Origin: a virus
Lineage: Duplodnaviria > Heunggongvirae > Uroviricota > Caudoviricetes
Virus record (IMG/VR): IMGVR_UViG_2925897562_000001
Direction: 5' to 3' (one strand)
Length of the DNA stretch: 64,000 nt
Positions 44 through 48,902 of the stretch are shown here, in pieces. The first letter of the stretch is position 1, and each line of letters starts with the position of its first letter. A program made the position numbers and the translations under genes. The notes under the pieces are model-generated. The model worked only from the letters and a program-made list of their open reading frames with translations. It had not been told where the DNA came from and made no database searches.

Positions 44-1138
44 TCACGAGAAACTCTTTTCTGATGTCAGCCAACAGTGCTCGTGCATATCTCTTGGTGG
101 TTTTTCGACAAATGCCTCTTCAGCCACATCCTGCCAGGGGATTTGTTTAGCCCATTCAGTTATAGCGTTATGGTTTGCCGAGAATAACGGTATTGTATAG
201 GCCTTCAGCCAGTCTAATGTGCTGGAGTTGTGTTTTTGAGCGTGATGTTTCGCATGGTGTTTGGCGATCACGATCGTAGGCACTACCCATTTACTACCGT
301 CAGTCATTGTGAAGTGCATATTACGGGGAACAGATGACTTTTCCATCAACTCCCGAATCCCGGGGAATTTCCCCAAGATCAATCGGCGATATTCATCGCT
401 ATTGCGCCCACCAAACTCTTTGGCTTTGAATTCAAGATATGCTTCAGAAACGAGAGGTGAATCCTCTGTGTTTAGAGTTATCGCCGTGAAAAAACCAGCA
501 GGATTGTTTTTACTATGGGCCAACCGGTGATGCGAATCATAAAAGTACCCTTTCTCGCGTTCCGATGGTTTCGACAGCAACAGCAGGCGCGAGTCATAAT
601 TGGTTAAATTGCCAGTTATCACTGCATGAGCGCGATCGCTGATTTCCGCCGAGTTAATAACGATGAAAAGATCGTGCGGTCCAGTAAAACCAGCCAGAGA
701 CTCTTCGTTATTCAGACAATAGGTTATATAGACGCATCCCCATGTTTCACTGATATGCACCAACCCTTTGTCAGGGTGTATTCTGAAATAATTGCCAAGA
801 AAAGGGTGTTTTTGGGTAACTCGCTCCCAATAACGGAACATATAGTCAATTATTGTTTTTCGACAATCGTTAATCGCAGGAGAAACAACCACTGTACGGG
901 AACACGAATACAGTATTGTTTGCAGGATGCTAATCACTGCCACAATAGAGGTTTCCCCAATACCATGTGGTGTGGTGGCAGTGATTTTGGCTCCGGTGTT
1001 CTTTATCGCGTTAATAATTTTTGCTTGATGAGGTGTTAACTCAATATCAAGCAACTCTTTTGCTGCCAGTTCCCAATTGTCTTTATACCGTTCTATCAGT
1101 GCTAACCAGGCAGATTCATTCTGTATACGATTAATCAC
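44..1138 (-). CDS. terminase large-subunit (PacB) N-terminal ATPase-domain paralog with degenerate Walker A/B; no nuclease domain
   Basis: 364 aa, GTG start with GAGGTG SD; aligns by eye to PacB of this window (HGIGETS vs GHGTGKSD; LFIVINSAE vs LYIIDEASG; LLLLSKPSEREKGYFYDSHHRLA vs [21 protein letters not shown]); start overlaps stop of upstream ORF. Confidence 0.6.
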   Translation of the reverse strand: MINRIQNESAWLALIERYKDNWELAAKELLDIELTPHQAKIINAIKNTGAKITATTPHGIGETSIVAVISILQTILYSCSRTVVVSPAINDCRKTIIDYMFRYWERVTQKHPFLGNYFRIHPDKGLVHISETWGCVYITYCLNNEESLAGFTGPHDLFIVINSAEISDRAHAVITGNLTNYDSRLLLLSKPSEREKGYFYDSHHRLAHSKNNPAGFFTAITLNTEDSPLVSEAYLEFKAKEFGGRNSDEYRRLILGKFPGIRELMEKSSVPRNMHFTMTDGSKWVVPTIVIAKHHAKHHAQKHNSSTLDWLKAYTIPLFSANHNAITEWAKQIPWQDVAEEAFVEKPPRDMHEHCWLTSEKSFS

Positions 1139-3628: not shown

Positions 3629-6359
<2,731 letters not shown>

Positions 6360-6426: not shown

Positions 6427-9400
6427 ATGAACAAGCTATCTATGGGGGTGTTTCGCTGTTCAAGTGTCAGCGAAATATTGAAATACATTAGGGCAATAAC
6501 ATCTCACCGAGCGCCGATTAAATACGGCGTGGAAAAGGTGGAAGGCAAAAGCTATGACCGACTGCGCCGTGAGGCGAATCAGAAGGCGATAGATTTGCTT
6601 AATTCGCTGGTGGACGGCGCGACACTGACAGATGAACAGCGCCAGATCCTGGCTGGGTACACCGGTGAAGGCGGCATTGGCGGGTCCGTCTCCGAATATT
6701 ACACACCAAAGCCGATCGCTGAAGGTGTCTGGGAGATCATGAAGCTCTACGGCGCGGACGTAGGTAACACTCTGGAACCATCGGCGGGAACCGGCGTTTT
6801 TAATGAGACAAAACCGGTTGGTACGGTGATGACCGCGACTGAGATCAGCAGTGTTTCCGGTCGTATAAACCAGCTGTTGCACCCGGAAGACAGCGTACAG
6901 ATTTCTCCGTTCGAACAACTGGCTGTAAGCACGCCTAACGATTCATTCGACCATGTTGTGGGTAACGTTCCGTTCGGTGGTCGTGATAACACACGCAACA
7001 TCGATAAGCCTTACGCAGAAGAAACGGACATGGGTTCTTACTTCATGCTCCGCATGCTGGACAAGATAAAGCCAGGCGGATTCATGTGCGTGATTGTGCC
7101 GCCGTCCATTGTTTCAGGTTCAAACATGAAGCGGTTACGCCTGCGCCTATCACGGAAAGCTGAATTTCTTGGTGCCCACCGCTTGCCTACCGGTACTTTT
7201 GACGCAAACGGGACCAGTACAGTTGTTGATGTGGTGCTGATGCGCAAACATCCGGCAGAGATGGCTGAGAAAATCCCCCTGGTGGATGAAAGCACTCTCG
7301 AATCGGCAAATGTGCTTTGGCCAACGTTTATTTCTGGCAAGTGGTTTGAAAAGGACGGCCGCCGGTTTGTTCATGGCACCCAGGAAAAGGGCTTCCAGGG
7401 GCGTATTGAGGTTCGTGCCGACGGTCAGATTGATAACCAGGCTCTTAAAGCGAAGCTGATTCATCGTTTCGAAAGCCGTATCGACTGGTCTTTGCTCGAT
7501 ATGGCTGAACCGTCACCGACCGCAGACGTTGTTGGTGAAGGGGAAATGCGCCTGATTAATGGCGTATGGCAAAAATATGCTGGTGGTCGCTGGATTGAAG
7601 CTGATGCCGGGAAGGAACTTAAGATCGATGCTGCCAGTTATGGCGCGGATAGCTGGGAGGCTCTTCAGCGTAACCTGACTACAACAGAAGGCCGTCTCGG
7701 CATGACATTTACCCAGATGGCAAATGTCCGCGATAAGTACACCACATCAATCAGCGACGATATGGTGCAGCTGGTGGACTGGATTAACAGCCAGCCTGAA
7801 AAATACCGTGAACGCTTGTATCGCGGGGCGATGATTGGCCGGATGTTAATTGAATATCAGGACATGAAGGCCGCCGGGCATAGTGCTGAACAAATCGAAC
7901 AGCAGCGCCTTTCTCTGGTATCCCGTTTGCAGGCAGAGATTGACCGTTTTGGTAACCCCGGTCGCGGTCCGATAGCGAAATTGTCGGGGAGCGGTGCGCG
8001 CGCCTGGTTTGCTTTCCGTGGTGCAATTAAGCTGGATGGCACTATTTCTGACGAGCTGACAGGGAAGCTGGTTACGCATGATTCCAGCGCAAGTTATGAC
8101 TCCACCAGCTATCAGGACACCCTGCGTTATCTCTATAGCGATCTCACCCGCGATCCAATCCAGCTCGATGATTTCCGCCTTGCGTTTACCGGCGAACTGC
8201 CAGCCAGTGATGAAGAGTTGCTTAATTTATTGGCCAGCACCCCTGGTATTGCGGTTTCACCGTATGGCGGGATTGTTCCGTTCGCCCGCGCCACCAGCGG
8301 CGACATTAACGAGATAGTGGCTCCAAAACAGGAATTCCTCGCCACACTCCCCGACGGTCCAGTAAAGAACAACGTCCTTAATCAGCTGGCAGCTATCGAA
8401 GAGAAGCGCATCAAGACGCCAGCAGAGAATATCCGGTTTAAGCTCAATAGCCGTTGGTTCGACCGTTCCGTCATTCTGGAATTTTTGCAGGAAAACGGCT
8501 ATCCGGATCTGCGCTATGTGCAGTCAGTGCAGCTGGAAGGCGACGAAATGGTTTCTGACACCTATCACGGTGGTGATGGTCTGTTCGTCGGGCACCGATA
8601 CGGTGTCGTCCAGCGCAAGGATAAAGAAACAGGTGAGATTCGCTACGAGTGGGACCGTAAATCAGGTGAAAACGCGACCGGGTTCCCGGCACAGCTGGAA
8701 AAGTATCTCAATGGTGCGCGTATCGGTGGCAAAGATAGCGCGACGGCGAACGGCTACCGCGAGCAGATGGCACTGCTTGAGGACCAGTTCAATAAGTGGA
8801 TCAAGACGCACGATCGCTACGATGAGCTGGTTGCCAAATACAACGATGTGTTCAATAGCAATATCCCGTATGAACACTCTGGCGATCCGCTTGGGTTGAA
8901 GGGATTAAGCGGTAAGCGCCAGCCATTTGATTACCAGAATAGCGAGGTGCGCCGACTGTCCGAAGATGGGCGCGGCATCCTGGGCTTCGGCACCGGGCTG
9001 GGTAAAACCACGACCGCGCTGGCGCTTGAGGCGTTCAACTATGAGAACGGTCGCTCCACCCGTACTGCGTATGTAGTGCCTAAATCAGTGCTGGAAAACT
9101 GGTATTACGAAGCAAAAGAATTCCTGAGTGAAGAGGCATTCAGTAACTACCTGTTCGTCGGTCTTGATGTGCTGATGGATGGCGATCAGATTCGCCAGGT
9201 GCCGGTGCTCGATGAGAACGGTAAACCTGTTCTTGGTACTGATGGCACTCCAGTTATGCGCGATGCCTTAAAACTGGCAGATGAAGCCACTATCACGGCG
9301 CGGATGAACGCGATCCCGCACTCAAATTACCGTGCAGTCGTGTTTACCAAAGAACAATACGCCCGCATTCCGCTACGTGATGACACCGTAGATGAGCATG

Positions 9401-12400
9401 CACAGGATATGCTTTATGACTTCGTTGCCGCCGGACGCGTAGCCAGCGCAATGGACTCCGACTCCCACCGCAAAGAGGCCGCGCGTCGCCGGGTATTGTC
9501 GGAGTATTCAGATACCGGCACCGAAAAAGCAGAGAAGTATCCGTACTTTGAGGATATGGGCTTCGATAGTGTGATCGCTGACGAAGGTCACAACTACCGC
9601 AATAGCTATAAAAATGGTCGCGAAGCGTCACAACTGGCCTATCTGCCCACCAGCGCGGTGGCGCAATCGGCGCGAGATATGGCAATTAAAAACGCGTACC
9701 TGATGAAAAAGAATGGTGGGCGCGGGCCGGTTCTCCTGACTGCAACGCCAGTCGTTAACACCCCGATCGATGCATACAACATGCTTTCTCATGTTCTGCC
9801 GAAGGAATACTGGCAGAACATGGGGATCTACGGTCCTGATGACTTCGTTAAATTCTTCGGCAAGACCAGGCTGGAAACGGTACAGAAAATTAGCGGTGAA
9901 GTTGAAGAAAAAATGGCGCTGGTGGGCTTTGAAAACCTTGATGCGCTGCGCGGTATATTCCATCGCTGGGTAACGCTTAAAACGGCGGAAGACGTTAAGG
10001 ATACCGTGGAGATCCCGGAGCTGGACGAACACCAGCAGGATGCACCACTTACTGAAGAACAACTGGCGGCGTATGAAGAATTGCGTCAGCAGGCGGAAGC
10101 GGCGGCCAAAGCCAACAATGGCGTAACGACCTCGGTCAATGAAGACGGCGTGATTGAGCACGAGAAAGCCCGTCCGATCTTCTCAATAATCAGGGATATG
10201 GACCGCGTATGTACTGACATGGACCTGTACTATCGCCGGATCACCTATCGTTTCCTGCCGGAGTACGCCGATGCGGTGCAGCAGCTGGCGGACAGTTTGC
10301 CTAAACAAGCCACCAGCGAAGACGACGACAGTGATGATTCAATCACGCAGCAATCGCAATACTCCCTGATAGATAAGGGCGAGTTTATTCAGTTGCAGGT
10401 TCCGGAAGCGTTCGAGCAGGAAGTGAATAAGCGCCTGGCCAGGTTTGGCATTGACGAACAGACCGTAACTCACCCCGTTACGCCCAAATACGCGAAGCTG
10501 ATTGCCACGCTGAAGGAGTTTTTCCCGGAAGGTAAGCAAATCATCTTCACCGATGAAAAAACGCAGCACCAGAAGCTCAAGCGCATTATCTGCAATGCTC
10601 TTAACCTTGAACCTTCAAAGGTGGGGATACTGAATGCTCAGACGGTTGCCGAGGCAGGTAAAACCGGTAAGAAACTGAAAGCGGTTAAACCGCCGAAAGA
10701 GTTACCGGATGAACCAACAGATGCACAGATAGCGAAATACAACGAGCAAATGGCTCTGTATGACGCCTATATCGCGCAGCAAAATGAAATGTCGTTGGGC
10801 GGTCTGGAAAAGATTGCAGCCGACTTCCAGGAGGGCCGGACTCCGATCATCATCTGCAACAAAAAGGCAGAGGTGGGTATCAACCTGCATCGAGGAACGA
10901 CTGACATCCATCATCTGACGTTGCCATGGACTCCAGCCAGTATTGCGCAACGAAACGGTCGCGGTGCCCGAGTTGGCTCCAACCGTGCAAGCGTTCGCGT
11001 TCACTACTACTGCGGCAAGGGGTCTTTCGATGAATACCGACTGAAGACGCTGAAGCGTAAAGCAGGCTGGATCTCCGATATCCTCCGTTCAGATAAGTCA
11101 GAAATGGAGAACGCCGACGCCAACGATATGATCGAAATGCAGATGTATACCGCGAAGGATGACGGCGAACGTCTGGCAATGATGCAGGTTCAAATGGATA
11201 AGGCGAAAGCTGCGAAACGCGCTCGCCAGAAAGAACAGGCTACTATCGACCTTCAGAACTACATCAAGGCGCAGCACGCAGCTGGTGAGGATGTGGAGGT
11301 ACTTACCGCTGAATTGGAGCGAAGCAAAGCGGAACTTGAAAAGACCACCGCCGACGTCGCCAAATTCAAACAGGCGGTAATGGCCAAAGCAGCTGATAAC
11401 GCAGACTGGAAAGCCCGCTGGGGTAGCGTCCATCACACAGACCGTATGTTGTTAGCACAGTATCGCGCGTCGTTGAAAAGCGCCATTCAGCGCAAGGCTA
11501 ATATCTCTCAGGCCATCTCCCGCTATGAGAAATTATTGAACCGTACTCAGAAGGCCGCGACGGATATCAAACGCCTGCGCCCGCTGGTGGAGGATGCAAT
11601 AAATAAAGGCATTCTGGATGTTGATCCTGATCTGGTTAACCATGCGAATGAGTTCCTTGTTATCGGCGATCGCTCATGGCGTGTAGGCCAATACTATGAT
11701 TGTGCCGGTGATATCGTTCGCATTAAGTCGCTGGACTTCGACAGCCAGCGCGCAGACGTGGAGATCATCTTTACCTTCAAAGGCACCAAATCGGGTAACT
11801 GGGATGTGAAGACGCTGGATAAACAGGTTGATGTAACTCCCGATGAAGATGCTGTTATGCAGAAAATCAGTGGTGGCGTCTCCATCGCCGGGATTAACGA
11901 CATCGTTTCCTGTGACGATTTCTACCGTTTCCAGCAGCGCGGCATGATCAAAATCACTGACTCATACGGCGTTCAGACTACAGAGTCAGGCTATAGCATT
12001 GATTTTGTTGGTACCTATACGGACCCACTGAAGCATGCGGTTTACCCGGATCGCCGTGACAGCGCGCTGAAGTCGTCAATTGCAAAATGGGTGCTTGGTA
12101 TGATGTCGGAAGGGAATAACCGCCAGATCCGTTCGGCAGAAACATTCCTGGTTGAACTGTTTGGCTCCAATTATGGCGATGTAATCGCGTCATACGGAGA
12201 TACGCTATCCCCTGAAGCAATTCAGGAGAAAATAGCGGATGCGATCGCCAGAATGCCGGAAAAAACAAGCCAGGGGGCTACTCGTAACGGGGATTCTGAA
12301 CTTGAAGTCACCAATGCCATTTTCGGTACCAATGAGTTCCGGGCGTCAGATTATGAGATCACCACAGCACAGTTTGGCACCATTGGCATTTACAGCAATA

Positions 12401-13194
12401 AAGACGAGATCAAGCAGACAATGGACGCAGCAAGCGCGCGCATTGCAGCAGAACGGAAAGCCAATCTGAATCATGCAGTCGCCGCGCTGACTCAATCGTG
12501 GGTAACAGCAATCAGGAAGGCCGCCACCACAGGGAAAATCACACCGGCAATTGCGGATGTCGTAAACGACGGCTCTAAATTTATGGATGCCTATCAAATG
12601 GATGCGGTGCAGTTGCCATCAGCCTATGGGCAACTCAGCTATCGCATGACCTACAACCTGGTATCAATGTTTACCGACCTTGCCATCCTTGGGCTGGTGG
12701 ACCTTAACGAGGTTACGCCGGAATTGCTCAGCATGCGCAAGAATCATGTGGAGATATTGCACAGAATTAACACGGTACTTGCCGGGCGCACCGATGAAGA
12801 GAAACAGGCAGACGCTGATCGGATAAACCTGGCCCTTGGCAACATCACGGAGGAAGAAATTGCCGCCAGAAACGAGAAACAAGAAGAGTTATCATCAATA
12901 CAGGGTGATGCCACCAGCATAGCTCAGTCTCTTGGTCTGAATTATCGCGTATCCACCGCCGACCTGAAGATGATGTACGCACCAAAATTCGCCGCTGGCG
13001 AGGTATTTGGGCTTCAGGAAGCCTCCGGCATGAAAGGGGTTCTTTTCCGTGCGAAAGACGCAATCAAGGCGAAATTCGGCGCTCGCTGGTTGCCAGCGAA
13101 GGCGAAGAACAGCGACTTCCCAGGTAACTGGTGGATTATCGAGACAAAACACAACGTGGCGGACGTTCTGGCCGTCATCCAACAATACGCATAA
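6427..13194 (+). CDS. darB: DarB antirestriction protein (N-terminal methyltransferase-like plus SF2 helicase domains)
   Basis: 2255 aa, same length as recalled P1 DarB; motifs GNVPFGG, GFGTGLGKTT (Walker A), VIADEGHNYRN (DExH). Confidence 0.9.
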   Translation: MNKLSMGVFRCSSVSEILKYIRAITSHRAPIKYGVEKVEGKSYDRLRREANQKAIDLLNSLVDGATLTDEQRQILAGYTGEGGIGGSVSEYYTPKPIAEGVWEIMKLYGADVGNTLEPSAGTGVFNETKPVGTVMTATEISSVSGRINQLLHPEDSVQISPFEQLAVSTPNDSFDHVVGNVPFGGRDNTRNIDKPYAEETDMGSYFMLRMLDKIKPGGFMCVIVPPSIVSGSNMKRLRLRLSRKAEFLGAHRLPTGTFDANGTSTVVDVVLMRKHPAEMAEKIPLVDESTLESANVLWPTFISGKWFEKDGRRFVHGTQEKGFQGRIEVRADGQIDNQALKAKLIHRFESRIDWSLLDMAEPSPTADVVGEGEMRLINGVWQKYAGGRWIEADAGKELKIDAASYGADSWEALQRNLTTTEGRLGMTFTQMANVRDKYTTSISDDMVQLVDWINSQPEKYRERLYRGAMIGRMLIEYQDMKAAGHSAEQIEQQRLSLVSRLQAEIDRFGNPGRGPIAKLSGSGARAWFAFRGAIKLDGTISDELTGKLVTHDSSASYDSTSYQDTLRYLYSDLTRDPIQLDDFRLAFTGELPASDEELLNLLASTPGIAVSPYGGIVPFARATSGDINEIVAPKQEFLATLPDGPVKNNVLNQLAAIEEKRIKTPAENIRFKLNSRWFDRSVILEFLQENGYPDLRYVQSVQLEGDEMVSDTYHGGDGLFVGHRYGVVQRKDKETGEIRYEWDRKSGENATGFPAQLEKYLNGARIGGKDSATANGYREQMALLEDQFNKWIKTHDRYDELVAKYNDVFNSNIPYEHSGDPLGLKGLSGKRQPFDYQNSEVRRLSEDGRGILGFGTGLGKTTTALALEAFNYENGRSTRTAYVVPKSVLENWYYEAKEFLSEEAFSNYLFVGLDVLMDGDQIRQVPVLDENGKPVLGTDGTPVMRDALKLADEATITARMNAIPHSNYRAVVFTKEQYARIPLRDDTVDEHAQDMLYDFVAAGRVASAMDSDSHRKEAARRRVLSEYSDTGTEKAEKYPYFEDMGFDSVIADEGHNYRNSYKNGREASQLAYLPTSAVAQSARDMAIKNAYLMKKNGGRGPVLLTATPVVNTPIDAYNMLSHVLPKEYWQNMGIYGPDDFVKFFGKTRLETVQKISGEVEEKMALVGFENLDALRGIFHRWVTLKTAEDVKDTVEIPELDEHQQDAPLTEEQLAAYEELRQQAEAAAKANNGVTTSVNEDGVIEHEKARPIFSIIRDMDRVCTDMDLYYRRITYRFLPEYADAVQQLADSLPKQATSEDDDSDDSITQQSQYSLIDKGEFIQLQVPEAFEQEVNKRLARFGIDEQTVTHPVTPKYAKLIATLKEFFPEGKQIIFTDEKTQHQKLKRIICNALNLEPSKVGILNAQTVAEAGKTGKKLKAVKPPKELPDEPTDAQIAKYNEQMALYDAYIAQQNEMSLGGLEKIAADFQEGRTPIIICNKKAEVGINLHRGTTDIHHLTLPWTPASIAQRNGRGARVGSNRASVRVHYYCGKGSFDEYRLKTLKRKAGWISDILRSDKSEMENADANDMIEMQMYTAKDDGERLAMMQVQMDKAKAAKRARQKEQATIDLQNYIKAQHAAGEDVEVLTAELERSKAELEKTTADVAKFKQAVMAKAADNADWKARWGSVHHTDRMLLAQYRASLKSAIQRKANISQAISRYEKLLNRTQKAATDIKRLRPLVEDAINKGILDVDPDLVNHANEFLVIGDRSWRVGQYYDCAGDIVRIKSLDFDSQRADVEIIFTFKGTKSGNWDVKTLDKQVDVTPDEDAVMQKISGGVSIAGINDIVSCDDFYRFQQRGMIKITDSYGVQTTESGYSIDFVGTYTDPLKHAVYPDRRDSALKSSIAKWVLGMMSEGNNRQIRSAETFLVELFGSNYGDVIASYGDTLSPEAIQEKIADAIARMPEKTSQGATRNGDSELEVTNAIFGTNEFRASDYEITTAQFGTIGIYSNKDEIKQTMDAASARIAAERKANLNHAVAALTQSWVTAIRKAATTGKITPAIADVVNDGSKFMDAYQMDAVQLPSAYGQLSYRMTYNLVSMFTDLAILGLVDLNEVTPELLSMRKNHVEILHRINTVLAGRTDEEKQADADRINLALGNITEEEIAARNEKQEELSSIQGDATSIAQSLGLNYRVSTADLKMMYAPKFAAGEVFGLQEASGMKGVLFRAKDAIKAKFGARWLPAKAKNSDFPGNWWIIETKHNVADVLAVIQQYA

Positions 13195-13227: not shown

Positions 13228-13668
13228 ATGGCCACACTATCTGATACAATAAAACCGAATAAAACATATCTTGAGGCGGTACTCCGTACAGCGTTGTTAG
13301 GAAAGACAGAAGACGAATACGTTGATTTCTTCCTGTCAGGGCTACGCGGGCGATTACTGAAAAATCCCCGCCTGTACCGCAGCTATGGTCCATACTGGCC
13401 GGAAATTAAAAAATTATTACTGGAGCGCGGTTATGGTAATTTCGGTCGTCTCGTTGACCGTGACGTTCGCAAAATTTACCGTTATGACCGCCCGGCGCTA
13501 ACACTCATAGCCGCGACGCTCTACAGCCAGGAGCGTTTTGATAATGGTCAGATATACTCAGCCTGGCATTTACTGCCAGTGCCTGAAGAAGTTGACGACC
13601 AGGACTATGAGTTTGAGTCTTACGATTTGGAAGTTGAAGCCTTGGCACAGGCTGGAGAGAAAACTTGA
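13228..13668 (+). CDS. ulx: Ulx-like protein (upstream of lxc)
   Basis: 146 aa ORF immediately after darB, overlapping start of next ORF; P1 synteny. Confidence 0.6.
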   Translation: MATLSDTIKPNKTYLEAVLRTALLGKTEDEYVDFFLSGLRGRLLKNPRLYRSYGPYWPEIKKLLLERGYGNFGRLVDRDVRKIYRYDRPALTLIAATLYSQERFDNGQIYSAWHLLPVPEEVDDQDYEFESYDLEVEALAQAGEKT

Positions 13669-13913
13669 AAAAGCGATACTACACAGTAAAGCATGGGACG
13701 CTACGAGCATTACAAGAGTTTGCTGATAAGCATAACGTTGAGGTGCGCAGGGAAGGGGGAAGTAAAGCTCTGCGCATGTACCGCCCGGACGGGAAATGGC
13801 GGACGGTGGTCGATTTCAAAACTAACAGTGTTCCCCAGGGCGTCCGCGATCGGGCATTCGAAGAATGGGAGCAGATCATCATAGATAACGCATTGCTCCT
13901 GAATGCAGATTGA
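13665..13913 (+). CDS. lxc: Lxc/Bof-like C1 co-repressor
   Basis: 82 aa, size and position match recalled P1 lxc (bof). Confidence 0.6.
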   Translation: MKKRYYTVKHGTLRALQEFADKHNVEVRREGGSKALRMYRPDGKWRTVVDFKTNSVPQGVRDRAFEEWEQIIIDNALLLNAD

Positions 13914-13917
13914 CAAT

Positions 13918-13946
13918 TTTGCCCGGAATTACCGGGCAAAATTAAG
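13918..13946. terminator. bidirectional terminator ttttgcccgg-aatta-ccgggcaaaa between lxc and toxSAS gene
   Basis: 10-bp perfect inverted repeat flanked by A/T runs on both sides. Confidence 0.6.
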
Positions 13947-13949
13947 CAA

Positions 13950-15086
13950 CTATCCTTCGTTACGAAGATGCTTATCTAAGAATTTTGTAAACTGGTTTGT
14001 TGAGCCAAAATAGTTGGGGTAGGCTTTTTTTAGTGACTTAATGTTATCTGTAGCAACGAGAACAGATATCAATACATTAGGATTAGAATCGTCTTTATTT
14101 AAGGCCTCAAGGGCTTCATCTGCTTCTTTTGTTTTAAATGCGCGAACAGACACTAGGAACATTTTTTTGTTTTTTGTATTGGGCTTGTTTTCTGCATTTC
14201 TCATTGTTACTAAGTAATGCCCCTTATGATTTTTTGGCAACTTCTTAATCAAATTCGCGTCAGAAGTTAAATTTAAGGCGATGGTGTATGTGCTTAGTTT
14301 CCTCCGTACAGATAAAGTCCGTTCCAGCTCTTTAAGCTCGCCTTCATACTGAGATACAACTAGCTCATCAAGAGTGCAGGCTTTTTCGTCGTGCGCTACA
14401 AGACATCCGGCTAGATAGAAAAATCGTCTCCATTCTGGATGCCCTTCACTTGAAGTTTTCAGCTTGATACCTTCAAGGGTATCAATTATTTCAAGGCTGG
14501 TAGCCCAAGCATGCTGCAATTGAGTTCTTAACTGTATCTCAATCTTTGTTTTTCGCCACGGATATTGATCCTCTTTCTGATCGAAGCAACTGTATGCAAG
14601 GTGGATTCCACTATAGCCGCTGTCTTTGGGAGTAAGATAATCATACTCTTTAACAATCCTATGAACAGATTTGCTTTTTAAAAGACGTTCCTTTAGCTGT
14701 ATCAACTGGTCTAAGTTTCTGACAATGGCCCTACATCCGCCAACGTCCTGCATCCGTGTTAATTTAATTGCATTGCTAGTTCTGCCTCCATCAAGACTAG
14801 GACGCTCTAGTTTATCTATTATGGTAGAAAGTCGCTTAAGTCTTCTTGCAACGAGAATCTTTTTGTCCTTGTCAACCTTAGCAGCTGCTCTTGCTAAATG
14901 ATTTTTCATGAGCATTAATGGATAAAGATGCAGCTCACGGAAATTTTGTATCATTTCAATAGATTGCTGCCTTTCTTCGTCACTACACCCGTGCCTTATC
15001 AATTGAGCAGCCCTATCAATTTGAGATTTTGAATATTTCAACTTGCATTTTTGACTTTGATAAACTTCATTCCCCATTGCTTTCAT
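13950..15086 (-). CDS. RelA/SpoT-homolog small alarmone synthetase-type toxin with C-terminal extension (fused toxSAS, CapRel-like)
   Basis: 378 aa; RSH synthetase motifs RLKRLSTIIDKL (aa 81-92), GGCRAIV (116-122), YSGIHLAY (157-164), EIQLRTQLQHAWA (183-195); AT-rich versus flanks; occupies the res-mod position of P1. Confidence 0.85.
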   Translation of the reverse strand: MKAMGNEVYQSQKCKLKYSKSQIDRAAQLIRHGCSDEERQQSIEMIQNFRELHLYPLMLMKNHLARAAAKVDKDKKILVARRLKRLSTIIDKLERPSLDGGRTSNAIKLTRMQDVGGCRAIVRNLDQLIQLKERLLKSKSVHRIVKEYDYLTPKDSGYSGIHLAYSCFDQKEDQYPWRKTKIEIQLRTQLQHAWATSLEIIDTLEGIKLKTSSEGHPEWRRFFYLAGCLVAHDEKACTLDELVVSQYEGELKELERTLSVRRKLSTYTIALNLTSDANLIKKLPKNHKGHYLVTMRNAENKPNTKNKKMFLVSVRAFKTKEADEALEALNKDDSNPNVLISVLVATDNIKSLKKAYPNYFGSTNQFTKFLDKHLRNEG

Positions 15087-15179
15087 CCATTTTAAATGAT
15101 TTACATGCTGTTACATCTAATGATAAAGCGGTTAGAAAATCAATGGAGAATGTAACCACAAAATTACTGTATGTAATTG

Positions 15180-15821
15180 TTAAAAATAATTATGCTTGCC
15201 TGTTAATACCCCTTTCGGCACTTTTTTTTGTTCCAGTATCTGGGTGCCCAGAATTATGTTAATCAGTGGACTTAGTAACGATGGTTCTTGGCGGGCCTCA
15301 ACTTCTCCAGCCATTGCCCTGATGTAGTCGGCGCTGGCAACGTTGTTGTATTCCGTCGCAAAGCAACATAGTAACGTCAGAACATGCTCTGTCGTTATTT
15401 CGCTCCAGTTGATGTTGAAAAATTCATCGCCTTTTTTATCGTGTTCGGAATCGAAGATGCTTTGGTGGAGAATGTATTTGCCGGATTCCTTGCGCGGTAA
15501 CTTGATTGCTTTCTGGCGTTCCAGCTCCTTATAAATCTGCATTGCCTCAATTAGTACCGGCCTGCCGTTCATGAAGGGATCGCGCAACCTTACACGCTGG
15601 CCAACTCGACCAGTAATAAAGCTGTTTTCCTCTTCCACCAGCACGATAAAACCCTTTTCCTCTTTTTCTCGCAATTCGCGCAGCAGCTGGAGTTCCATAT
15701 CGCGGCGGCGTTCAGGGTAGCTGGTCCGCTCAGCCATTATCAGCTCGTTATTGATCCATGCAGCAGTCATTGACGCCGGTTTGCCGACGCTCATCGAAAC
15801 AACGCATATTTTCTTATCCAT
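15180..15821 (-). CDS. mat: particle maturation protein
   Basis: 213 aa from ATG 15821; position between ref and the res-mod slot as in P1. Confidence 0.6.
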   Translation of the reverse strand: MDKKICVVSMSVGKPASMTAAWINNELIMAERTSYPERRRDMELQLLRELREKEEKGFIVLVEEENSFITGRVGQRVRLRDPFMNGRPVLIEAMQIYKELERQKAIKLPRKESGKYILHQSIFDSEHDKKGDEFFNINWSEITTEHVLTLLCCFATEYNNVASADYIRAMAGEVEARQEPSLLSPLINIILGTQILEQKKVPKGVLTGKHNYF

Positions 15822-17180: not shown

Positions 17181-18212
17181 CTAATTGCCATCTTCCAGCA
17201 GGCGCACCATTGCCCCTGTTTCACTATCCAGGTTACGGATATAGTTCATGACAATATTTACATTGGTCCAGCCACCAGCTTGCATGATCTCCGGTATTGA
17301 AACTCCAGCGCGGGCCATATCTCGCGCTGCTCCGACACGGGCACTGTGTCCAGACCAGGCCAGGTATCTCTGACCAGAGTCATCCTTAGCGCCGTAAATC
17401 AATCGATGAGTTGCTTCAAAAATCCCTTCCAGGGCGCGAGTTGATAGCTGGCTGGTGGCAGATGGCGCGGCAACACCATTTTTTCTGACCCGGCAAAACA
17501 GGTAGTTATTCGGATCATCAGCTACACCAGAGACAGAAATCCATCGCTCGACCAGTTTAGTTACCCCCAGGCTAAGTGCCTTCTCTACACCTGCGGTGCT
17601 AACCAGCGTTTTCGTTCTGCCAATATGGATTAACATTCTCCCACCGTCAGTACGTGAGATATCTTTAACCCTGATCCTGGCAATTTCTGCTATACGTAGC
17701 AGGGTATTATAAGCAATCCCAAGAAATGCCAGATTACGTATATCCTGGCAGCGATCGCTATTTTCCATGAGTGAACGAACCTGGTCGAAATCAGTGCGTT
17801 CGAACGCCAATGCCTGTTTTGCACGTTCACCGGCATCAACGTTTTCTTTTCGAATCCGCCGCATGACCAGTGAAACAGCATTGCTGTCACTTGGTCGTGG
17901 CAGCCCGGACCGACGATGAAGCATGTTTAGCTGGCCCAAATGTTGCTGGATAGTTTTTACTGCCAGACCGCGCGCCTGAAGATATAGAAGATAATCGCGA
18001 ACATCTTCAGGTTCTGCGGGAAACCATTTCCGGTTATTCAACTTGCACCATGCCGCCCACGACCGGCAAACGGACAGAAGCATTTTCCAGGTATGCTCAG
18101 AAAACGCCTGGCGATCCCTGAACATGTCCATCAGGTTCTTGCGAACCTCATCACTCGTTGCATCGACCGGTAATGCAGGCAAATTTTGGTGTACGGTCAG
18201 TAAATTGGACAT
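17181..18212 (-). CDS. cre: Cre tyrosine site-specific recombinase
   Basis: 343 aa; recognised as Cre from recalled sequence (MSNLLTVHQNLPALPVDATSDEVRKNLMDMF...), consistent with the adjacent loxP. Confidence 0.97.
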   Translation of the reverse strand: MSNLLTVHQNLPALPVDATSDEVRKNLMDMFRDRQAFSEHTWKMLLSVCRSWAAWCKLNNRKWFPAEPEDVRDYLLYLQARGLAVKTIQQHLGQLNMLHRRSGLPRPSDSNAVSLVMRRIRKENVDAGERAKQALAFERTDFDQVRSLMENSDRCQDIRNLAFLGIAYNTLLRIAEIARIRVKDISRTDGGRMLIHIGRTKTLVSTAGVEKALSLGVTKLVERWISVSGVADDPNNYLFCRVRKNGVAAPSATSQLSTRALEGIFEATHRLIYGAKDDSGQRYLAWSGHSARVGAARDMARAGVSIPEIMQAGGWTNVNIVMNYIRNLDSETGAMVRLLEDGN

Positions 18213-25902: not shown

Positions 25903-25987
25903 TACATTGAAAAGGCATAGTTTGTGAAAGCGGGGTTTGTAGGCGCGCCACGCTGGGGGCTAATCACATTTCTCCCCCATCTTGCCG

Positions 25988-26239
25988 TTATTTTTTTGGT
26001 GCATCCTCGTTCTGATACACCGGATCGCTCCCTTTTGGCAACTGGAGGCTTAACTGCCGGTAGTGCCGTAGCCGTTCCATGAAATAGGCGCGCAGGTTTT
26101 CCGGTTGCTCACGGGCCACCTGCTCTGCAATCACAGGTATATTCAGCCGTTCTTTGTAAGCAACGCCGCTGGCGGCAAGGTCTACGTTCACCTTGTCTCG
26201 CTCTTCCTGGCTTTTAGCTGCTATATTTCGATCTGACAC
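25988..26239 (-). CDS. hot: homolog of DNA polymerase III theta subunit
   Basis: 83 aa; [43 protein letters not shown] closely resembles recalled E. coli HolE; GTG start with GGAGG SD. Confidence 0.85.
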
Positions 26240-26271
26240 AAGAAACCTCCAGGAGTTAGTGGATCAGGCAC

Positions 26272-26622
26272 ATGCACAATAACGTTCTCAATGTTAGCCG
26301 TTCAATTCAGACAATCAGAGACTGGACCAGTGTGGTGGCATCAATCCCATTGCGGAACAGCATAGACGAACTGCAAATTCGTGTATTGAATCCGAATCAG
26401 GCTAATAAGCAATTGCGCTTTATTTTGACGCTGAAAAGTGAAACAGAGGGGATAAAGCACAGCGTAAAAGTGTTTTCTGAGGCCATTCTGCTTAATGGGA
26501 AGCTCCGGCATCTGGTAAGGCCAGAACGTCAATATCCTGACGTCCTGGCGCGTGAAAAAGACCTTCTTTCTGAAGTTCAGGATAGGGTGATCGATTTCGT
26601 CAAATGCTATCCCCTGCATTGA
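26272..26622 (+). CDS. hypothetical protein (only plus-strand ORF in a minus-strand cluster)
   Basis: 116 aa ORF, weak RBS. Confidence 0.3.
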   Translation: MHNNVLNVSRSIQTIRDWTSVVASIPLRNSIDELQIRVLNPNQANKQLRFILTLKSETEGIKHSVKVFSEAILLNGKLRHLVRPERQYPDVLAREKDLLSEVQDRVIDFVKCYPLH

Positions 26623-26891
26623 GGGCAGGTGTTCCCTTCCGCAAAGTAGGGAAAATTGCTATCAAGTTCATCACACCATCTGCGTTGGTCGTAGCACCAA
26701 AACGCCTCCCACGGTGCACGGAAATACTTCATCCACCAGGACACTCGATCAGGTATATCTGCTGGTGGCAGTTCTTCTGGCAATAATTTGCCTGATAATT
26801 CCCTTTCCGCCCGCGACAGCATTTTTTTGAGGCTCGCGTTCTCTTTTTCAAGCTCATCTACGCGCACCTGTAATTCAGCTTTCGTTGGCAT
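26607..26891 (-). CDS. hypothetical coiled-coil protein with C-terminal CxxC
   Basis: 94 aa from ATG 26891; overlaps upstream ORF end. Confidence 0.45.
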   Translation of the reverse strand: MPTKAELQVRVDELEKENASLKKMLSRAERELSGKLLPEELPPADIPDRVSWWMKYFRAPWEAFWCYDQRRWCDELDSNFPYFAEGNTCPQCRG

Positions 26892-27813
26892 GGTCCACCT
26901 CATGCTTTTCAGCCACCAGCGGCAATAAAGCCCTGGCCATCTTATGAACCAATAGTGCATCAATAATGCCAAGCGTATGCCCCGGCTTAATGTTTAATGC
27001 CGCCTCAAGGTGACACCTTTCCAGGTCACTTTTCTCGGCTTGTTTATGATGATCTGGTGTAATAACGTCGCCCAAAACACGGCTAATTCTTTCTCGTAAT
27101 TGCTGGGTGCCAGCACACTTGATCGCTGTATCGTGGAGACGGTTAACCAGTTCGCGATAAACATGCGGCTTAATGCGGATACGTTCACCGGTGACGCCCT
27201 TTCCTGGCGCTGGCACCGAACTATCCGGAATATCCGGATAGTTGCCAGCCTCGTAAGCTACCCACAGCCAGTGCATGAATGTTTCAGTGGACACACAACC
27301 ACAGTCCACATCGATTTTCCCGCGTTGCTGTTCCAGCCATTGCCCAAAATCCAACCTGTAAGTCTTACTTTCAAGTTCATCACCATTGAACTCGACTTTC
27401 TGCGACGCTATGAGAGCTGATTCGTATTGTTCGCGAGTGACAACTGACTGGTATTCATCGCTATCAAGGCCACCAATTGGAAGCTCAATCTCACAACAAA
27501 AATTGCGCCCAAAGAAAGTGTCTTTTTTGTGGTCTGAGCCAAAAGCAAAAGTCGCGCATGGTGCCATTAAATTGACACTGGGTAGGTAACAATAACTCAT
27601 TCCATCAGGCCACCCGCCGCACTTAGGCAGCTCCTTCACTAACAAGTCGATAAGCTTCATTTTTTTATCATCTTTGCAAGCCGCCAAAGCCATTTGGGCA
27701 AGTGCCAATACTTCATCTGCCGTATATCCAGCACCGTGACCATACATTTCGATACGGGAAATAATCTCTGATATACGCTCTTCAGTGATTCTGGTCATTT
27801 CTTTTTGCGCCAT
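26875..27813 (-). CDS. hypothetical protein
   Basis: 312 aa ORF, ATG start. Confidence 0.6.
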   Translation of the reverse strand: MAQKEMTRITEERISEIISRIEMYGHGAGYTADEVLALAQMALAACKDDKKMKLIDLLVKELPKCGGWPDGMSYCYLPSVNLMAPCATFAFGSDHKKDTFFGRNFCCEIELPIGGLDSDEYQSVVTREQYESALIASQKVEFNGDELESKTYRLDFGQWLEQQRGKIDVDCGCVSTETFMHWLWVAYEAGNYPDIPDSSVPAPGKGVTGERIRIKPHVYRELVNRLHDTAIKCAGTQQLRERISRVLGDVITPDHHKQAEKSDLERCHLEAALNIKPGHTLGIIDALLVHKMARALLPLVAEKHEVDHANES

Positions 27814-28169
27814 TTCTTTTCACATTCCTTAGTCCATTTTTCAATGTTCATTTTGGCAATATCGGTCATTCCATCACCTAAGAAATACTTTCTCCGGTAT
27901 GTCTTGCACTTAAACCACACTACAACAGCCACCAGCCAGAAAATAAAAGGCCATACAGCAATACCAACGACTGCCGCGATAAAGCTCAATATCCATAAAT
28001 GAAGCTCTCCAACTTCTGTTTCCGGCAATATTCTTAAAGAATTAAACAGTAGGCTGAACGCATGGTCGTATGCATTGGCAGTATAAGACATGCAATCCAT
28101 ATAATTAAAGTCATAGCCTGCGGCTGCCGCCCATAATGGGCGGTCAAGAAAATGTTTTAGTGTCATCAT
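27795..28169 (-). CDS. hypothetical membrane protein (2 predicted TM helices, basic C-terminus)
   Basis: 124 aa; LWILSFIAAVVGIAVWPFIFWLVAVVVWF; AT-rich. Confidence 0.55.
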   Translation of the reverse strand: MMTLKHFLDRPLWAAAAGYDFNYMDCMSYTANAYDHAFSLLFNSLRILPETEVGELHLWILSFIAAVVGIAVWPFIFWLVAVVVWFKCKTYRRKYFLGDGMTDIAKMNIEKWTKECEKKWRKKK

Positions 28170-28175
28170 ATAAAT

Positions 28176-28469
28176 TTAAGGTTCAGACCAGTTATCTTCA
28201 ATAGCAATGCTTAATCTTTGTAGCCATTCTGCTAATTTCAGCATTGCTTCTCTTTCGCTTAAACCACGAGGAAAATCATCAAGCGAAATTGTTGGCTTGA
28301 AGCCCCCGTAATTATCCATTTCAACTGTCAGATTTTGCTCCAGCACGGTATTCCTTACGCGGCTATTGTGCCGAAGCAAATATACTGAACGTGATTTATT
28401 GGTTTTATGGTCAAACTGATATTCGGTAAGTATCATCTGGCTTTTGCCATGACTATTACCTCTCCACAT
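28176..28469 (-). CDS. hypothetical protein
   Basis: 97 aa from ATG 28469 (ORF track opens at TTG 28565); AT-rich. Confidence 0.45.
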   Translation of the reverse strand: MWRGNSHGKSQMILTEYQFDHKTNKSRSVYLLRHNSRVRNTVLEQNLTVEMDNYGGFKPTISLDDFPRGLSEREAMLKLAEWLQRLSIAIEDNWSEP

Positions 28470-28647
28470 ACTTACCTCACTTAATAAAACAACTCCATGC
28501 GTAGTTGATGATTTTTTCCCACGTAATATAAATCTGCACTCCGGCAGTAAAACCAAAGCCAACAATTGCTGAAAAAATCAAAACATTTACTTTTGACATT
28601 ATAAATTTTCTCTCGGTGTCGTAGGTGATAGCACCATAATTGATAAT

Positions 28648-28881
28648 TTAGTGAGTTAGCAGTTCCATTTTTTGGATGATTTCCGCATGAGCATCATCGT
28701 TATCAACACTTAACTCGTTTAATGCCTCTCGCACTACATCAACTTCTTCAGGCTGAAAGAAGTCGTCGCGGTAATCACCAAATAGAACCGAAACCAGCCT
28801 GCCACCAGCAACATCAAGATTGGCGCTAACAGGTGGCTCTTTGCCATCCTCAAATTCGACAACAAAAGTTAATTTTCCCAT
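28648..28881 (-). CDS. hypothetical acidic protein
   Basis: 77 aa ORF, AT-rich. Confidence 0.5.
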   Translation of the reverse strand: MGKLTFVVEFEDGKEPPVSANLDVAGGRLVSVLFGDYRDDFFQPEEVDVVREALNELSVDNDDAHAEIIQKMELLTH

Positions 28882-28957
28882 CGTTACCCCCAGAAGATAA
28901 AAATAGCGGCAATCGCCATAGCTACGCCTACAATCGCAAATGCTTCAGGCCAGCTCA

Positions 28958-29218
28958 TTACCGCACCTCAAGTCTCCATGCCGCCTGACCAATCCGGCTG
29001 GCATGGGTATCTTTGGATACTGTTCCGTCTTTAGCCAGCTCCATAAGAATTTTGCGCAAATCTGCCGAGCGCCATTCTTCATCAGGAAATTCCTTCTCCA
29101 TTGCCAACCGCAGATTCCAAGTTGCTATCGTGAATGGATATTCACCGCCGAGAGCTTTCTCTTGTAGGGCAGCACGGGAACGCATCACCTGCAAAACCTT
29201 CTCTTTTACATCCATCAT
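28958..29218 (-). CDS. hypothetical protein
   Basis: 86 aa from ATG 29218, ATGA overlap with upstream gene stop. Confidence 0.5.
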   Translation of the reverse strand: MMDVKEKVLQVMRSRAALQEKALGGEYPFTIATWNLRLAMEKEFPDEEWRSADLRKILMELAKDGTVSKDTHASRIGQAAWRLEVR

Positions 29219-30096
29219 TTCGCCTCCTGCGGCGGTTCTGGTAGCGGCATCCAGTGTGATGGAATCCACGACGCACCAGGAATTATCCAACCATCATTAG
29301 CGTCAGGATGTCCCGGTATGTAAGTCGCCCACTTCATTCGCCAGTCACCTTTCCCGTCAAACTCCCTGGCAACAAGAACAGCTGTTTTGCTATCCGGCAT
29401 TCGCTCACTACAGCTTATCCAATCATCCAGAGTTACCGGAGAATTGCCATTTACCAAGTCAGCTCGAACATATAGCGTGTCATCATGGTGCTGATTGTGG
29501 CTGCACCACGTTAATTCGCTTAACTCGCCATCTTCTGGCCATACTCCAGCCGTTTGCAGCCAGATATGGGCTGGCGCATCTTTGCAAGGTGTATTAACTG
29601 GCAACTTGTAAGTTTGGCTTACAGGTTCGGCACCATGAAGCATGGCGTCGCTCCGCTCTATGCCATCCAGCGCGATTCGCAGTGCATGAATTGTGGTAGA
29701 GCTATCGTTTGGGGCTATTCCATATCGCTCGAATACAGCTAAATGGTTGCGCATAATCTCAGGCGTAAGCTCTTTGTAAGCATAAGCAAGAGGCTCTGAT
29801 GCATTATCCGGCACAACCGACGCAGGCGCGGCAGCATAAACAGGAATAACGTCCGCTTGCTCTTTATTGCTTTCATCCGTTAAAGCCCAGAATAATTTCC
29901 CGGCCGGATGTTTGAAAATATAAGCAACTGGCTCTGCTTCCAGCGATGCCAGCGTAATTTCAGCCAGCTTGAGGTGAATAACCGCCGCATCATAAGCGCC
30001 TGGGACTCTTCCCACCGCAACGCGAAGAACCTCAATATTCTTCTTAGCCTGCTCAATCAACTGCTCTTTGGTGAACTCTTTGGTAATCGTGATCAT
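29215..30096 (-). CDS. hypothetical protein with DUF551-like C-terminus
   Basis: 293 aa; C-terminal WISCSERMPD...WMPLPEPP resembles the phage DUF551 pattern. Confidence 0.6.
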   Translation of the reverse strand: MITITKEFTKEQLIEQAKKNIEVLRVAVGRVPGAYDAAVIHLKLAEITLASLEAEPVAYIFKHPAGKLFWALTDESNKEQADVIPVYAAAPASVVPDNASEPLAYAYKELTPEIMRNHLAVFERYGIAPNDSSTTIHALRIALDGIERSDAMLHGAEPVSQTYKLPVNTPCKDAPAHIWLQTAGVWPEDGELSELTWCSHNQHHDDTLYVRADLVNGNSPVTLDDWISCSERMPDSKTAVLVAREFDGKGDWRMKWATYIPGHPDANDGWIIPGASWIPSHWMPLPEPPQEAK

Positions 30097-46829: not shown

Positions 46830-46905
46830 TGGTGGCCCCTACCGGACTTGAACCGGTGACCGTGCGATTATGAGTCGCCAGCTCTAACCACTGAGCTAAA
46901 GGGCC
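46830..46905 (-). tRNA. tRNA-Ile2 (anticodon CAU, lysidine type)
   Basis: 76 nt cloverleaf; near-identical to recalled E. coli ileX; acceptor GGCCCTT, T-loop GGTTCAAGTCC, 3' CCA. Confidence 0.85.
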
Positions 46906-47977: not shown

Positions 47978-48240
47978 CCTCTCACTCCATTATTTAACGA
48001 ATAAAAAAGCTGCGGTGCCGGGTGCCTCCCGGTGTCCTTTGGCTGGTTATCCACCGTGGACGGGGAAACAAGGAGAAATGAATGGACTGATATAACCATT
48101 TCCCCGCGTGCGCTTAGCCGCATTCACCGCAATGGTAAGAGCACTTGGCTGGCTGGGCGGCGATGACGCCTGTACGCATTTGTTGATCCGGTTCTGCTTC
48201 CGGCATTCGCTTAATTAGCCAAATACTCTTAACGTTGCGC

Positions 48241-48327
48241 TGGCGGAGAGTAATGGAATCGAACCATCATCGCTTGCGCTATGGGACGGTTTTCAAGACC
48301 GCTTGAGCACCATGCTCCCTACTCTCC
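48241..48327 (-). tRNA. tRNA-like element, long variable arm, anticodon loop CTTGAAA (UGA, Ser-like), non-canonical D-arm
   Basis: 7-8 bp acceptor GGAGAGT/ACTCTCC, T-arm GATGG-TTCGATT-CCATT, 3' GCCA; hand-folded only. Confidence 0.35.
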
Positions 48328-48748
48328 AGTGATTGTGGTGGTCGGTGCTGAACTCCGACACAGGGTTGTAGCAAGCCCCGCAAAGCGCGCACTACTGTAG
48401 TTGCGGCACATCAGCCTGTGCATTCACCACAATGTTGAGAACACTGGTTGTCACGCGGCAACGCAACATTTATTCATAGATTGGGATATGACCCCGTTAC
48501 GCCAATGTTCTCAACGTTGTAGTGCCGGTTACGGTTCCGGCCAGGCCTCTTCCTCAACGGGGTGTTCTCCATACGGACTACCGTTTATTGGTCGTTCCTG
48601 CGGTTTATGTTGTGAAGCCAGATGCTTATCTTCTGGTTGCTTCTAAGAGCTGCACTTCATCACAACGGTAAGGGTACTTCGTAGGGATTCGAACCCTCTG
48701 CCAAGCTCGGCGATCTCCGACGTCGCAAAATACCCTTACCTGTTGTGC

Positions 48749-48824
48749 TGGTGCCGATTAACGGACTCGAACCGCTGACATCCTGCTTACAAGGCAGGCG
48801 CTCTACCAACTGAGCTAAACCGGC
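48749..48824 (-). tRNA. tRNA-Thr (anticodon UGU)
   Basis: 76 nt; GCCGGTT...GCTCAGTTGGTAGAGC...loop CTTGTAA...GGTTCGAGTCC...CCA. Confidence 0.85.
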
Positions 48825-48826
48825 AT

Positions 48827-48902
48827 TGGCGATGGTGGATGGATTTGAACCATCGACCCGTTGATTAACAGTCAACCGCTCTAACCGCTGAGCTACACCA
48901 TC
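48827..48902 (-). tRNA. tRNA-Asn (anticodon GUU)
   Basis: 76 nt; loop CTGTTAA; T-loop GGTTCAAATCC; 3' GCCA. Confidence 0.85.

Follow-up and report, generated by a model that had tools for sequence, protein, structure and literature searches.

A CapRel-type gene occupies the interval between lxc and mat in a P1-like phage-plasmid represented by IMG/VR record IMGVR_UViG_2925897562_000001 (Caudoviricetes), of which one stretch of 64,000 nucleotides, referred to here as the window, was analyzed. The gene, capRel, lies on the minus strand within positions 13914-15179. As exchangeable cargo of the variable region RD-1, it very probably specifies a fused toxin-antitoxin of the CapRel family by which the lysogen is protected from other phages. 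Family membership, domain architecture, conservation of experimentally tested residues, genomic position, and cassette exchange are established here. The gene's family, slot, hot-spot, and allele have all been described before, the allele standing in hundreds of database records, and as a genome feature it is ordinary, being a known family in the slot of its type example. The only fresh point is that relAP1, a P1-borne gene with a published fitness cost, is a CapRel.

The original prediction described an AT-rich open reading frame (ORF) of 378 aa at 13950..15086 on the minus strand, with four motifs of the fold that synthesizes guanosine tetra- and pentaphosphate, (p)ppGpp. That ORF is present and intact in the window ORF list, all four motifs are found in its translation (RLKRLSTIIDKL, GGCRAIV, YSGIHLAY, and EIQLRTQLQHAWA), and GC content is 0.34-0.41 over capRel versus 0.47-0.54 in its flanks. 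The true start is probably Met4, at the ATG at 15077, giving 375 aa, because both CapRel-SJ46 (the homologue from Salmonella phage SJ46) and NCBI cluster P0001 (375 aa, 313 members, 100% identical to the window protein) begin there. An in-frame ATG 9 nt upstream of Met4 (15086, giving 378 aa) is present in both the window and SJ46 alleles, and a strong Shine-Dalgarno sequence is missing at either candidate start. The gene and its parts, all on the minus strand, are as follows:

13950..15077, minus: capRel (= relAP1) coding sequence, 375 aa from the probable start Met4; stop codon 13950-13952
14361..15077, minus: toxSYNTH domain (toxic RelA/SpoT-type nucleotidyltransferase), residues 1-239; placed by Pfam and residue mapping, 79.5% identical to SJ46
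14613-14615, minus: G-loop Y155, within toxSYNTH, by residue mapping
14538-14543, minus: I179/E180, within toxSYNTH, by residue mapping
13953..14360, minus: fused antitoxin/sensor region, residues 240-375, colinear with 7ZTB; α7-α9 anchors, pseudo-zinc-finger domain (pseudo-ZFD), and C-terminal anchor
14046-14231, minus: pseudo-ZFD, residues ~283-344; placed by the 7ZTB alignment and the AlphaFold2 (AF2) model
14010-14021, minus: autoinhibitory YXXY motif, Y353-Y356, in the C-terminal anchor

The RelA/SpoT (nucleotidyltransferase) fold proposed for the protein was recovered by profile and structure searches alike: Pfam RelA_SpoT (PF04607) matches at 3e-12, above the gathering score, and Foldseek of the AF2 model returns CapRel and then small alarmone synthetases. 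The PADLOC candidate family PDC-S33 matches over the full length (6.7e-86); a literature search on "PDC-S33" found no papers. Among all PDB sequences, the best matches are 7ZTB and 9ERV, both CapRel-SJ46 (E 5e-185, residues 4-374), and the small alarmone synthetases RelP and RelQ match at 1e-5 to 1e-8 over residues ~78-198, the catalytic core, only. BLASTP aligns 371 residues with the SJ46 product J46_0058 at 74% identity, the only gap being one residue long. The only NCBIfam match is the YjbM equivalog NF053588 at 35.5 bits against a cutoff of 320, so that the GTP diphosphokinase equivalog test fails; the generic RefSeq name "RelA/SpoT domain-containing protein" reflects the lack of a specific NCBIfam model.

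A RelA/SpoT domain, catalytic residues, a pseudo-ZFD, and a YXXY interface are thus combined in a single gene, as in CapRel. No credible separate antitoxin ORF was found in the 93-bp upstream gap (15087-15179), as had been claimed, or in the 36-bp gap to lxc; the upstream gap holds only a 30-aa GTG ORF in another frame that overlaps the capRel start. Together with the full-length colinear match and the retained catalytic and autoinhibitory residues, this bears out the proposed fused toxin-antitoxin architecture. The C-terminal extension, put at ~180 aa by the original prediction, has that length if counted from the end of the Pfam domain; by the CapRel structure, the enzyme runs to about residue 239 and the sensor comprises ~135 aa. 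The same note had left undecided whether the protein is a CapRel ortholog or a diverged relative, and pairwise alignment identifies it as a full-length CapRel-SJ46 ortholog whose sensor half has diverged (57-63% identity versus 80% in the enzyme half).

Functional residues were taken from two CapRel papers (PMC9712102 and PMC11578894). In CapRel-SJ46, R79 and R116 coordinate the ATP adenine, Y155 lies in the G-loop, the YXXY tyrosines Y352 and Y355 form the autoinhibitory interface with A77, V338, L339, A341, and A351, and L280 and L307 are required for capsid sensing (PMC9712102). All 12 of these tested residues are identical in the window protein, where R79 and R116 fall inside the toxSYNTH domain. 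The window protein also carries every invariant residue of a 76-sequence family alignment, in which Y155, R79, R116, and E180 and Q182 of the ExQ motif are invariant, as are A352, Y353, P354, and N355 (window numbering), with Y356 nearly so.

An AF2 model built on the same alignment has a mean predicted local distance difference test (pLDDT) score of 85.2 and a predicted template modeling (pTM) score of 0.82, with most of toxSYNTH above 85. In its C-terminal part, strands are predicted at 286-294, 307-315, and 335-343, the last two being separated by a helix (316-331), and residues 281-344 contain no Cys. This secondary structure matches the published pseudo-ZFD, in which β7 and β8 of a three-stranded antiparallel sheet enclose a helix, zinc-binding cysteines are lacking, and anchor helices flank the domain (PMC9712102); structure prediction of the C-terminal domain, proposed as a check on the gene, thereby reproduces the sensor. 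Foldseek against the PDB ranks 9ERV and 7ZTB first (E 4e-41, template modeling scores 0.70/0.77) and RelP/RelQ next, with 8PU3 among the matches. The root-mean-square deviation between model and CapRel crystals is 9-10 Å at ~70% sequence identity, which suggests a closed conformation in the model and an open one in the crystals, as has been reported for SJ46.

CapRel-SJ46 (J46_0058; PDB 7ZTB, 9ERV; Zhang et al., Nature 2022 and 2024) shares family, length, and domain order with the window protein, and both genes sit in the same lxc-mat slot on the same strand of P1-like genomes with flanks 97-100% identical. Identity to SJ46 is uneven along the protein (SJ46 numbering):

toxSYNTH, 1-239: 79.5%
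anchor helices, 240-269: 57%
pseudo-ZFD, 270-339: 63%
β6-β7 loop, 292-306: 53%, plus a 1-residue insertion
C-terminal anchor, 340-373: 71%

The β6-β7 loop, which reads NAENKPNTKNKKM in the window and NAITK-NGKDTGK in SJ46, has been linked to contact with the A-domain of the capsid protein (PMC9712102). Given the divergence of this loop and of the pseudo-ZFD, the SJ46 triggers cannot be assumed for the window allele, whose trigger or trigger range may differ. Helix α9 (270-279) binds Gp54 of Bas11, the second of the SJ46 triggers (PMC11578894). K269N, K277I, and S279K distinguish the two proteins in or near the Gp54-contact helix. No other segment of the family varies as much as this helix (2.66 bits), yet the window and SJ46 agree at 8 of its 10 positions, and among the sampled family sequences the core "LTSDANL" is common to only the two P1-borne alleles. 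In the family alignment, mean entropy is 2.44 bits at columns where the window and SJ46 differ and 0.99 at those where they are identical; only six differences fall at conserved columns, and all but K138V are conservative. A domain mosaic with a sensor borrowed from another homologue was considered and rejected for want of supporting evidence: the pseudo-ZFD is at most 73% identical to that of any cluster representative.

Synonymous sites between the two alleles are saturated (proportion of synonymous differences, pS, 0.81-0.93), and the nonsynonymous distance dN comes to 0.15 for the enzyme half and 0.27 for the sensor half, which argues for purifying selection. At saturated pS, a ratio to the synonymous distance (dN/dS) testing for positive selection on the sensor is not computable, and the dN ratio is reported alone. 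By these distances, the window and SJ46 genes are old alleles under purifying selection, with the sensor evolving faster, and the window allele is no recent variant. Nucleotide identity between them is 97-100% through ulx-lxc and most of mat and falls to 50-80% over ~13905-15270, so that the exchanged block takes in capRel, the hairpin downstream of it, the gap upstream, and ~30 codons at the end of mat. This identity profile indicates that the two P1-borne alleles arrived by cassette exchange and not by in-place divergence.

The whole 64-kb window aligns with P1 and one P1-like genome, a few blocks excepted. Homology to P1 ends with lxc, at its stop codon (window 13911-13917), and begins again where mat stops (window 15179 = P1 3469), and the segment replaced in the window (13914-15179) corresponds to P1 3469-9749, which places capRel in the res-mod slot as originally predicted. 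The lxc-mat interval of P1 and P7 holds res and mod without a RelA/SpoT gene beside them. The surroundings of the cassette follow the P1-like gene order:

6427-13194, plus: darB, flanking gene before ulx
13228-13668, plus: ulx, preceding lxc
13665..13913, plus: lxc, conserved left flank; homology to all P1-like genomes stops at its stop codon
13915..13943: inverted repeat with perfectly paired 12-bp arms (AATTTTGCCCGG / CCGGGCAAAATT) and a 5-nt loop, lying between the stops of the convergent genes lxc and capRel
15078..15179, minus: untranslated region upstream of capRel, including the 93-bp gap to mat; blocks partly conserved with SJ46
15180..15270, minus: last ~30 codons of mat, which diverge along with the cassette; right edge of the exchanged block
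15180..15821, minus: mat, conserved right flank, in a 213-aa reading; the P1-style start at 15932 gives 250 aa
beyond mat, minus: ref, c8, and then cre (17181-18212)

Alternative occupants of the slot were seen in seven other phage genomes, and at least six slot states occur among the phages sampled:

P1, P7, 813R1: type III restriction-modification
SJ46: CapRel-SJ46
673R5: the window capRel allele
JL22: PIN-domain protein with a weak PDC-S34 match (L005 2876-3826)
MH422554: DUF2971 protein with a PDC-S31 match (L006 2867-3907)
Ro157c2YLVW: AraC-type regulator and EAL protein
RCS47: empty, 39 bp

This comparison bears out the earlier suggestion of a defense-swap hotspot at the mat-lxc junction, a hot-spot that had already been published as RD-1. 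RD-1 (P1 3469-9749) is one of five hot-spots in P1-like plasmids, and a "putative phosphokinase" is listed in RD-1 of pTZ20_1P (Venturini et al., Sci Rep 2019; PMC6906374). The RD-1 described there is the same segment as that of the window; that paper assigned the gene to no defense family. RD-1 content was again reported as variable by Lai & Cooper, who found relAP1 in low-GC RD-1 and always between mat and lxc (PMC10865808). According to a 2025 DefenseFinder preprint, E. coli P1-like phage-plasmids commonly carry CapRel or a dGTPase and Salmonella ones type III restriction-modification. The EcoP1I/EcoP7 type III restriction-modification systems (res, mod) share the slot and likewise serve defense, but they are unrelated in protein and mechanism and consist of two genes on the opposite strand, over 6.3 kb (including IS5 in P1) versus 1.27 kb in the window. 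Three of the single-gene occupants match PADLOC candidate families: PDC-S34 (weakly), PDC-S31, and PDC-S33 (the window CapRel).

The identification of relAP1, from the P1-like phage of E. coli M114, as the window allele comes from two comparisons. The 90-nt ancestral relAP1 oligonucleotide matches window 14497-14586 at 89 of 90 bases, the single mismatch being synonymous, and SJ46 at just 63 of them, which identifies the allele as that of the window; moreover, pTZ20_1P (NZ_MN510447.1), which carries relAP1 according to Lai & Cooper (PMC10865808), is 99.9% identical to the window cassette. The two genes have the same mat/lxc flanks, and the interpretation alone differs. blaTEM-116* was found to carry a 9-16% fitness cost for which relAP1 is necessary and sufficient; on its own, relAP1 was costless (Lai & Cooper, mBio 2024; PMC10865808). 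The cost was compensated by loss of the phage, by a null allele, or by I179S (PMC10865808); I179 directly precedes E180, the invariant residue of the catalytic motif. Its product was described as synthesizing ppGpp and as "lacking any recognised regulatory domain", without mention of CapRel (PMC10865808). A literature search found no paper tying relAP1 to CapRel, or CapRel/toxSAS (toxic small alarmone synthetase) proteins to TEM. The relAP1 genetics fit a latent, catalytically competent toxin that is harmful only under one condition and by way of its catalytic region.

A ulx-lxc backbone is present in 698 PLSDB plasmids. The following PLSDB counts of slot states are gene-based, with the slot position confirmed for part of the records only:

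window capRel allele: 51 records, all Escherichia, all at least 99% identical
SJ46 capRel allele: 22 records
DUF2971 gene: 89 records
PIN gene: 23 records
P1-type res: at most 108 records (48 at ≥99%; not all necessarily P1-like)
RCS47-type empty junction: 31 records

More than half of the PLSDB P1-like plasmids must therefore carry cargo outside the sampled states. In PLSDB, the window allele outnumbers that of SJ46 about twofold (51 versus 22), and it occurs in 82 of 5,426 complete E. coli genomes (1.5%), at ≥99% identity and almost always plasmid-borne. It is thus the commoner P1-borne CapRel allele, with a sensor ~60% identical to the characterized one, and offers a natural variant for mapping sensor sequence against trigger range. 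The DUF2971 gene, the most frequent cargo counted, is apparently uncharacterized. Three of the 51 plasmid matches cover <80% of the cassette query. In NZ_CP050045.1 (13288-15329), the cassette match is split in two, and an IS1A-family element is annotated beneath it; this record and the partial matches could be natural capRel knock-outs. In ON470615.2 (phage vB_EcoM-673R5), the 99.8%-identical gene at 4377-5476 is annotated as two coding sequences (543 and 549 nt), with darB and mat likewise broken up into several, and the matched stretch is 1798 bases versus 1801 in the window; the shared splits and the 3 missing bases point to assembly indel errors and not to a real pseudogene.

By homology to CapRel-SJ46, the N-terminal toxSYNTH domain would act as a tRNA pyrophosphokinase that moves pyrophosphate from ATP onto tRNA 3′ CCA termini, bringing translation to a stop. 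From 80% identity in the enzyme domain, we infer that the active window protein shares this chemistry and blocks translation. In the uninfected cell, the C-terminal pseudo-ZFD would fold back, with the YXXY motif wedged between R79 and R116 and the ATP site blocked. A phage protein would then bind the pseudo-ZFD and anchor helices and keep the protein open, and the opened enzyme would halt translation and abort the infection. In SJ46, the trigger is the major capsid protein or a small Gp54-like protein (PMC9712102, PMC11578894). A role in phage defense, with activation by a phage protein at the pseudo-ZFD and anchors, would likewise follow from the SJ46 homologue, as would enzymatic activity and the existence of a trigger.

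Several points weigh against a phage-triggered CapRel. The pseudo-ZFD is just 56-63% identical to that of SJ46, with 7 of 15 positions differing in the β6-β7 loop besides its 1-residue insertion, and no consensus σ70 promoter was called in the 93-bp gap, where by eye only weak candidates are seen; the sole minus-strand σ70 call (15262-15235) lies inside mat. Since published constructs with native upstream DNA work (134 bp upstream for relAP1, PMC10865808; 100-200 bp for SJ46, PMC9712102), capRel presumably has its own promoter within 15078..15179, where the blocks CCATTGATTT and ATGTAACA are partly conserved with SJ46. In addition, the authors who studied the relAP1 allele interpreted its product as a ppGpp synthetase. 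On that published interpretation (Lai & Cooper 2024; PMC10865808), it would be a stand-alone small alarmone synthetase without a regulatory domain, raising basal (p)ppGpp and sensitizing the stringent response, and the Pfam RelA_SpoT domain and the PDB and Foldseek matches to RelP/RelQ (1e-5 to 1e-8) agree with it. The match to the tRNA pyrophosphokinase CapRel is, however, ~175 orders of magnitude better and full-length, and a conserved ~135-aa regulatory/sensor domain with YXXY contradicts the statement that any regulatory domain is lacking. With the YjbM equivalog score far under its cutoff (35.5 bits versus 320), and with relAP1 alone being without a fitness effect, which is a better fit to an autoinhibited toxin than to a constitutive synthetase, an ordinary alarmone synthetase is highly improbable.

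Much the same slight probability is given to a mainly plasmid-addictive role, in which the gene would have succeeded res-mod in stabilizing the element by post-segregational killing instead of defending against phages. The toxin-antitoxin architecture, carriage on a low-copy plasmid prophage, and the slot of EcoP1I res-mod, which is counted among the P1 addiction systems by Venturini 2019 (PMC6906374), would all suit such a module. With toxin and antitoxin in one polypeptide, though, there is no differential decay to kill after plasmid loss; loss is in fact tolerated, as 6 of 9 evolved lines lost the entire P1-like element and gained fitness (PMC10865808), and the ortholog CapRel-SJ46 is a demonstrated phage-triggered defense (PMC9712102). 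A decaying or inactive AT-rich remnant, which the low GC relative to the backbone and the two split coding sequences in ON470615.2 might indicate, is in effect already refuted, since the ORF is intact and a phenotype has been published. The window copy keeps all family-invariant residues, the allele is ≥99% identical across 51 plasmids and 82 genomes, dN lies far under the saturated dS versus SJ46, and the measurable phenotype depends on the catalytic region (PMC10865808); the split in ON470615.2 is accompanied by the darB and mat splits, as expected of assembly indel errors.

With relAP1 assigned to CapRel, the interaction of this prophage gene with a β-lactamase gene, published but unexplained, acquires a concrete mechanism that can be tested. 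As a tentative proposal, with the odds somewhat against it, the cost of blaTEM-116* could reflect low-level misfiring of the anti-phage sensor and not a ppGpp effect: TEM-116* or its cytoplasmic precursor, directly or via a host factor, might partly open the pseudo-ZFD and so lead to tRNA pyrophosphorylation. If true, an immune receptor of bacteria would be triggered by a non-phage protein, a plasmid-borne resistance factor, and a defense gene in a prophage would decide which resistance genes a strain carries cheaply.

Other members of the wider group differ from the window CapRel in trigger or in gene arrangement. CapRel-Ebc of Enterobacter chengduensis is by description, like the window protein, a fused toxSAS whose pseudo-ZFD sets phage specificity, and CapRel-Kp is also named in the same report (PMC9712102). 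The triggers of CapRel-Ebc differ, with T7 Gp0.4 acting together with FtsZ according to a further report (PMC13423816). PhRel/ATphRel of mycobacteriophage Phrann and FaRel2/ATfaRel2 have the same toxSYNTH fold, and their toxic activity is tRNA CCA-end pyrophosphorylation. Their antitoxins are separate genes, whereas in the window the antitoxin is fused and has no neighboring antitoxin ORF.

The hairpin at 13915-13943 has a folding free energy of −18.4 kcal/mol on the plus strand and −21.8 kcal/mol on the minus strand (z −4.4/−4.2). It reads TTTT-GCCCGG-loop-CCGGGC-AAAA on both strands, with the T-run 5′ and the A-run 3′ of the GC core; a U-tract after the stem is absent in both directions, and a terminator scan did not call it. 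A canonical bidirectional intrinsic terminator is rejected on these two grounds. Of the "bidirectional terminator" originally placed at 13918-13946, the hairpin itself is real, at slightly shifted coordinates, and the terminator label is not sustained. Transcripts of lxc and of capRel probably both have this hairpin at their 3′ ends, where its terminator function is putative. The 3′ hairpin and upstream region of SJ46 differ from those of the window, and a different strong hairpin lies within a few bases of the lxc stop in each cargo variant (the window, L002, L004, L005, and L006) and even at the empty RCS47 junction. With each cassette bringing its own post-lxc hairpin, the recombination boundary falls exactly at the lxc end, and the 3′-end structure is supplied by the cassette.

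Further variable blocks and genes were noted elsewhere in the window. Positions 1-1129 show no match to the P1-like references and adjoin isaA, where P1 has IS1 (RD-2 of Venturini); the 364-aa ORF at 44..1138 (minus) has no Pfam or PADLOC match. Positions 25918-32354 form a patchy ~6.4-kb variable block with several orphan ORFs, probably the equivalent of Venturini's RD-5, that includes:

29215-30096: DUF551 protein
31144-31869: Ead/Ea22-like protein

A search for other defense cargo gave no PADLOC matches for the ORFs of the unmatched blocks at 1-1129 and 25.9-32.4 kb. No more than three tRNA genes are known in P1 itself. In the window, a tRNA-Ser (anticodon UGA; 48241-48327, minus) lies in a block (48149-48333) that matches no compared reference, near tRNA-Thr and tRNA-Asn (48749-48902) and a CAT-anticodon tRNA (46830-46905). 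The presence of an extra tRNA on an element that also bears a tRNA-targeting toxin may be a coincidence. One further gene is partly without counterpart in the references:

49578-52166, minus: double DNA methyltransferase of 862 aa, with C5-cytosine and Dam-type N6-adenine domains (Dmt-like)

Its central ~735 bp (50691-51425) are unmatched in the references, which would fit a swapped target-recognition segment.

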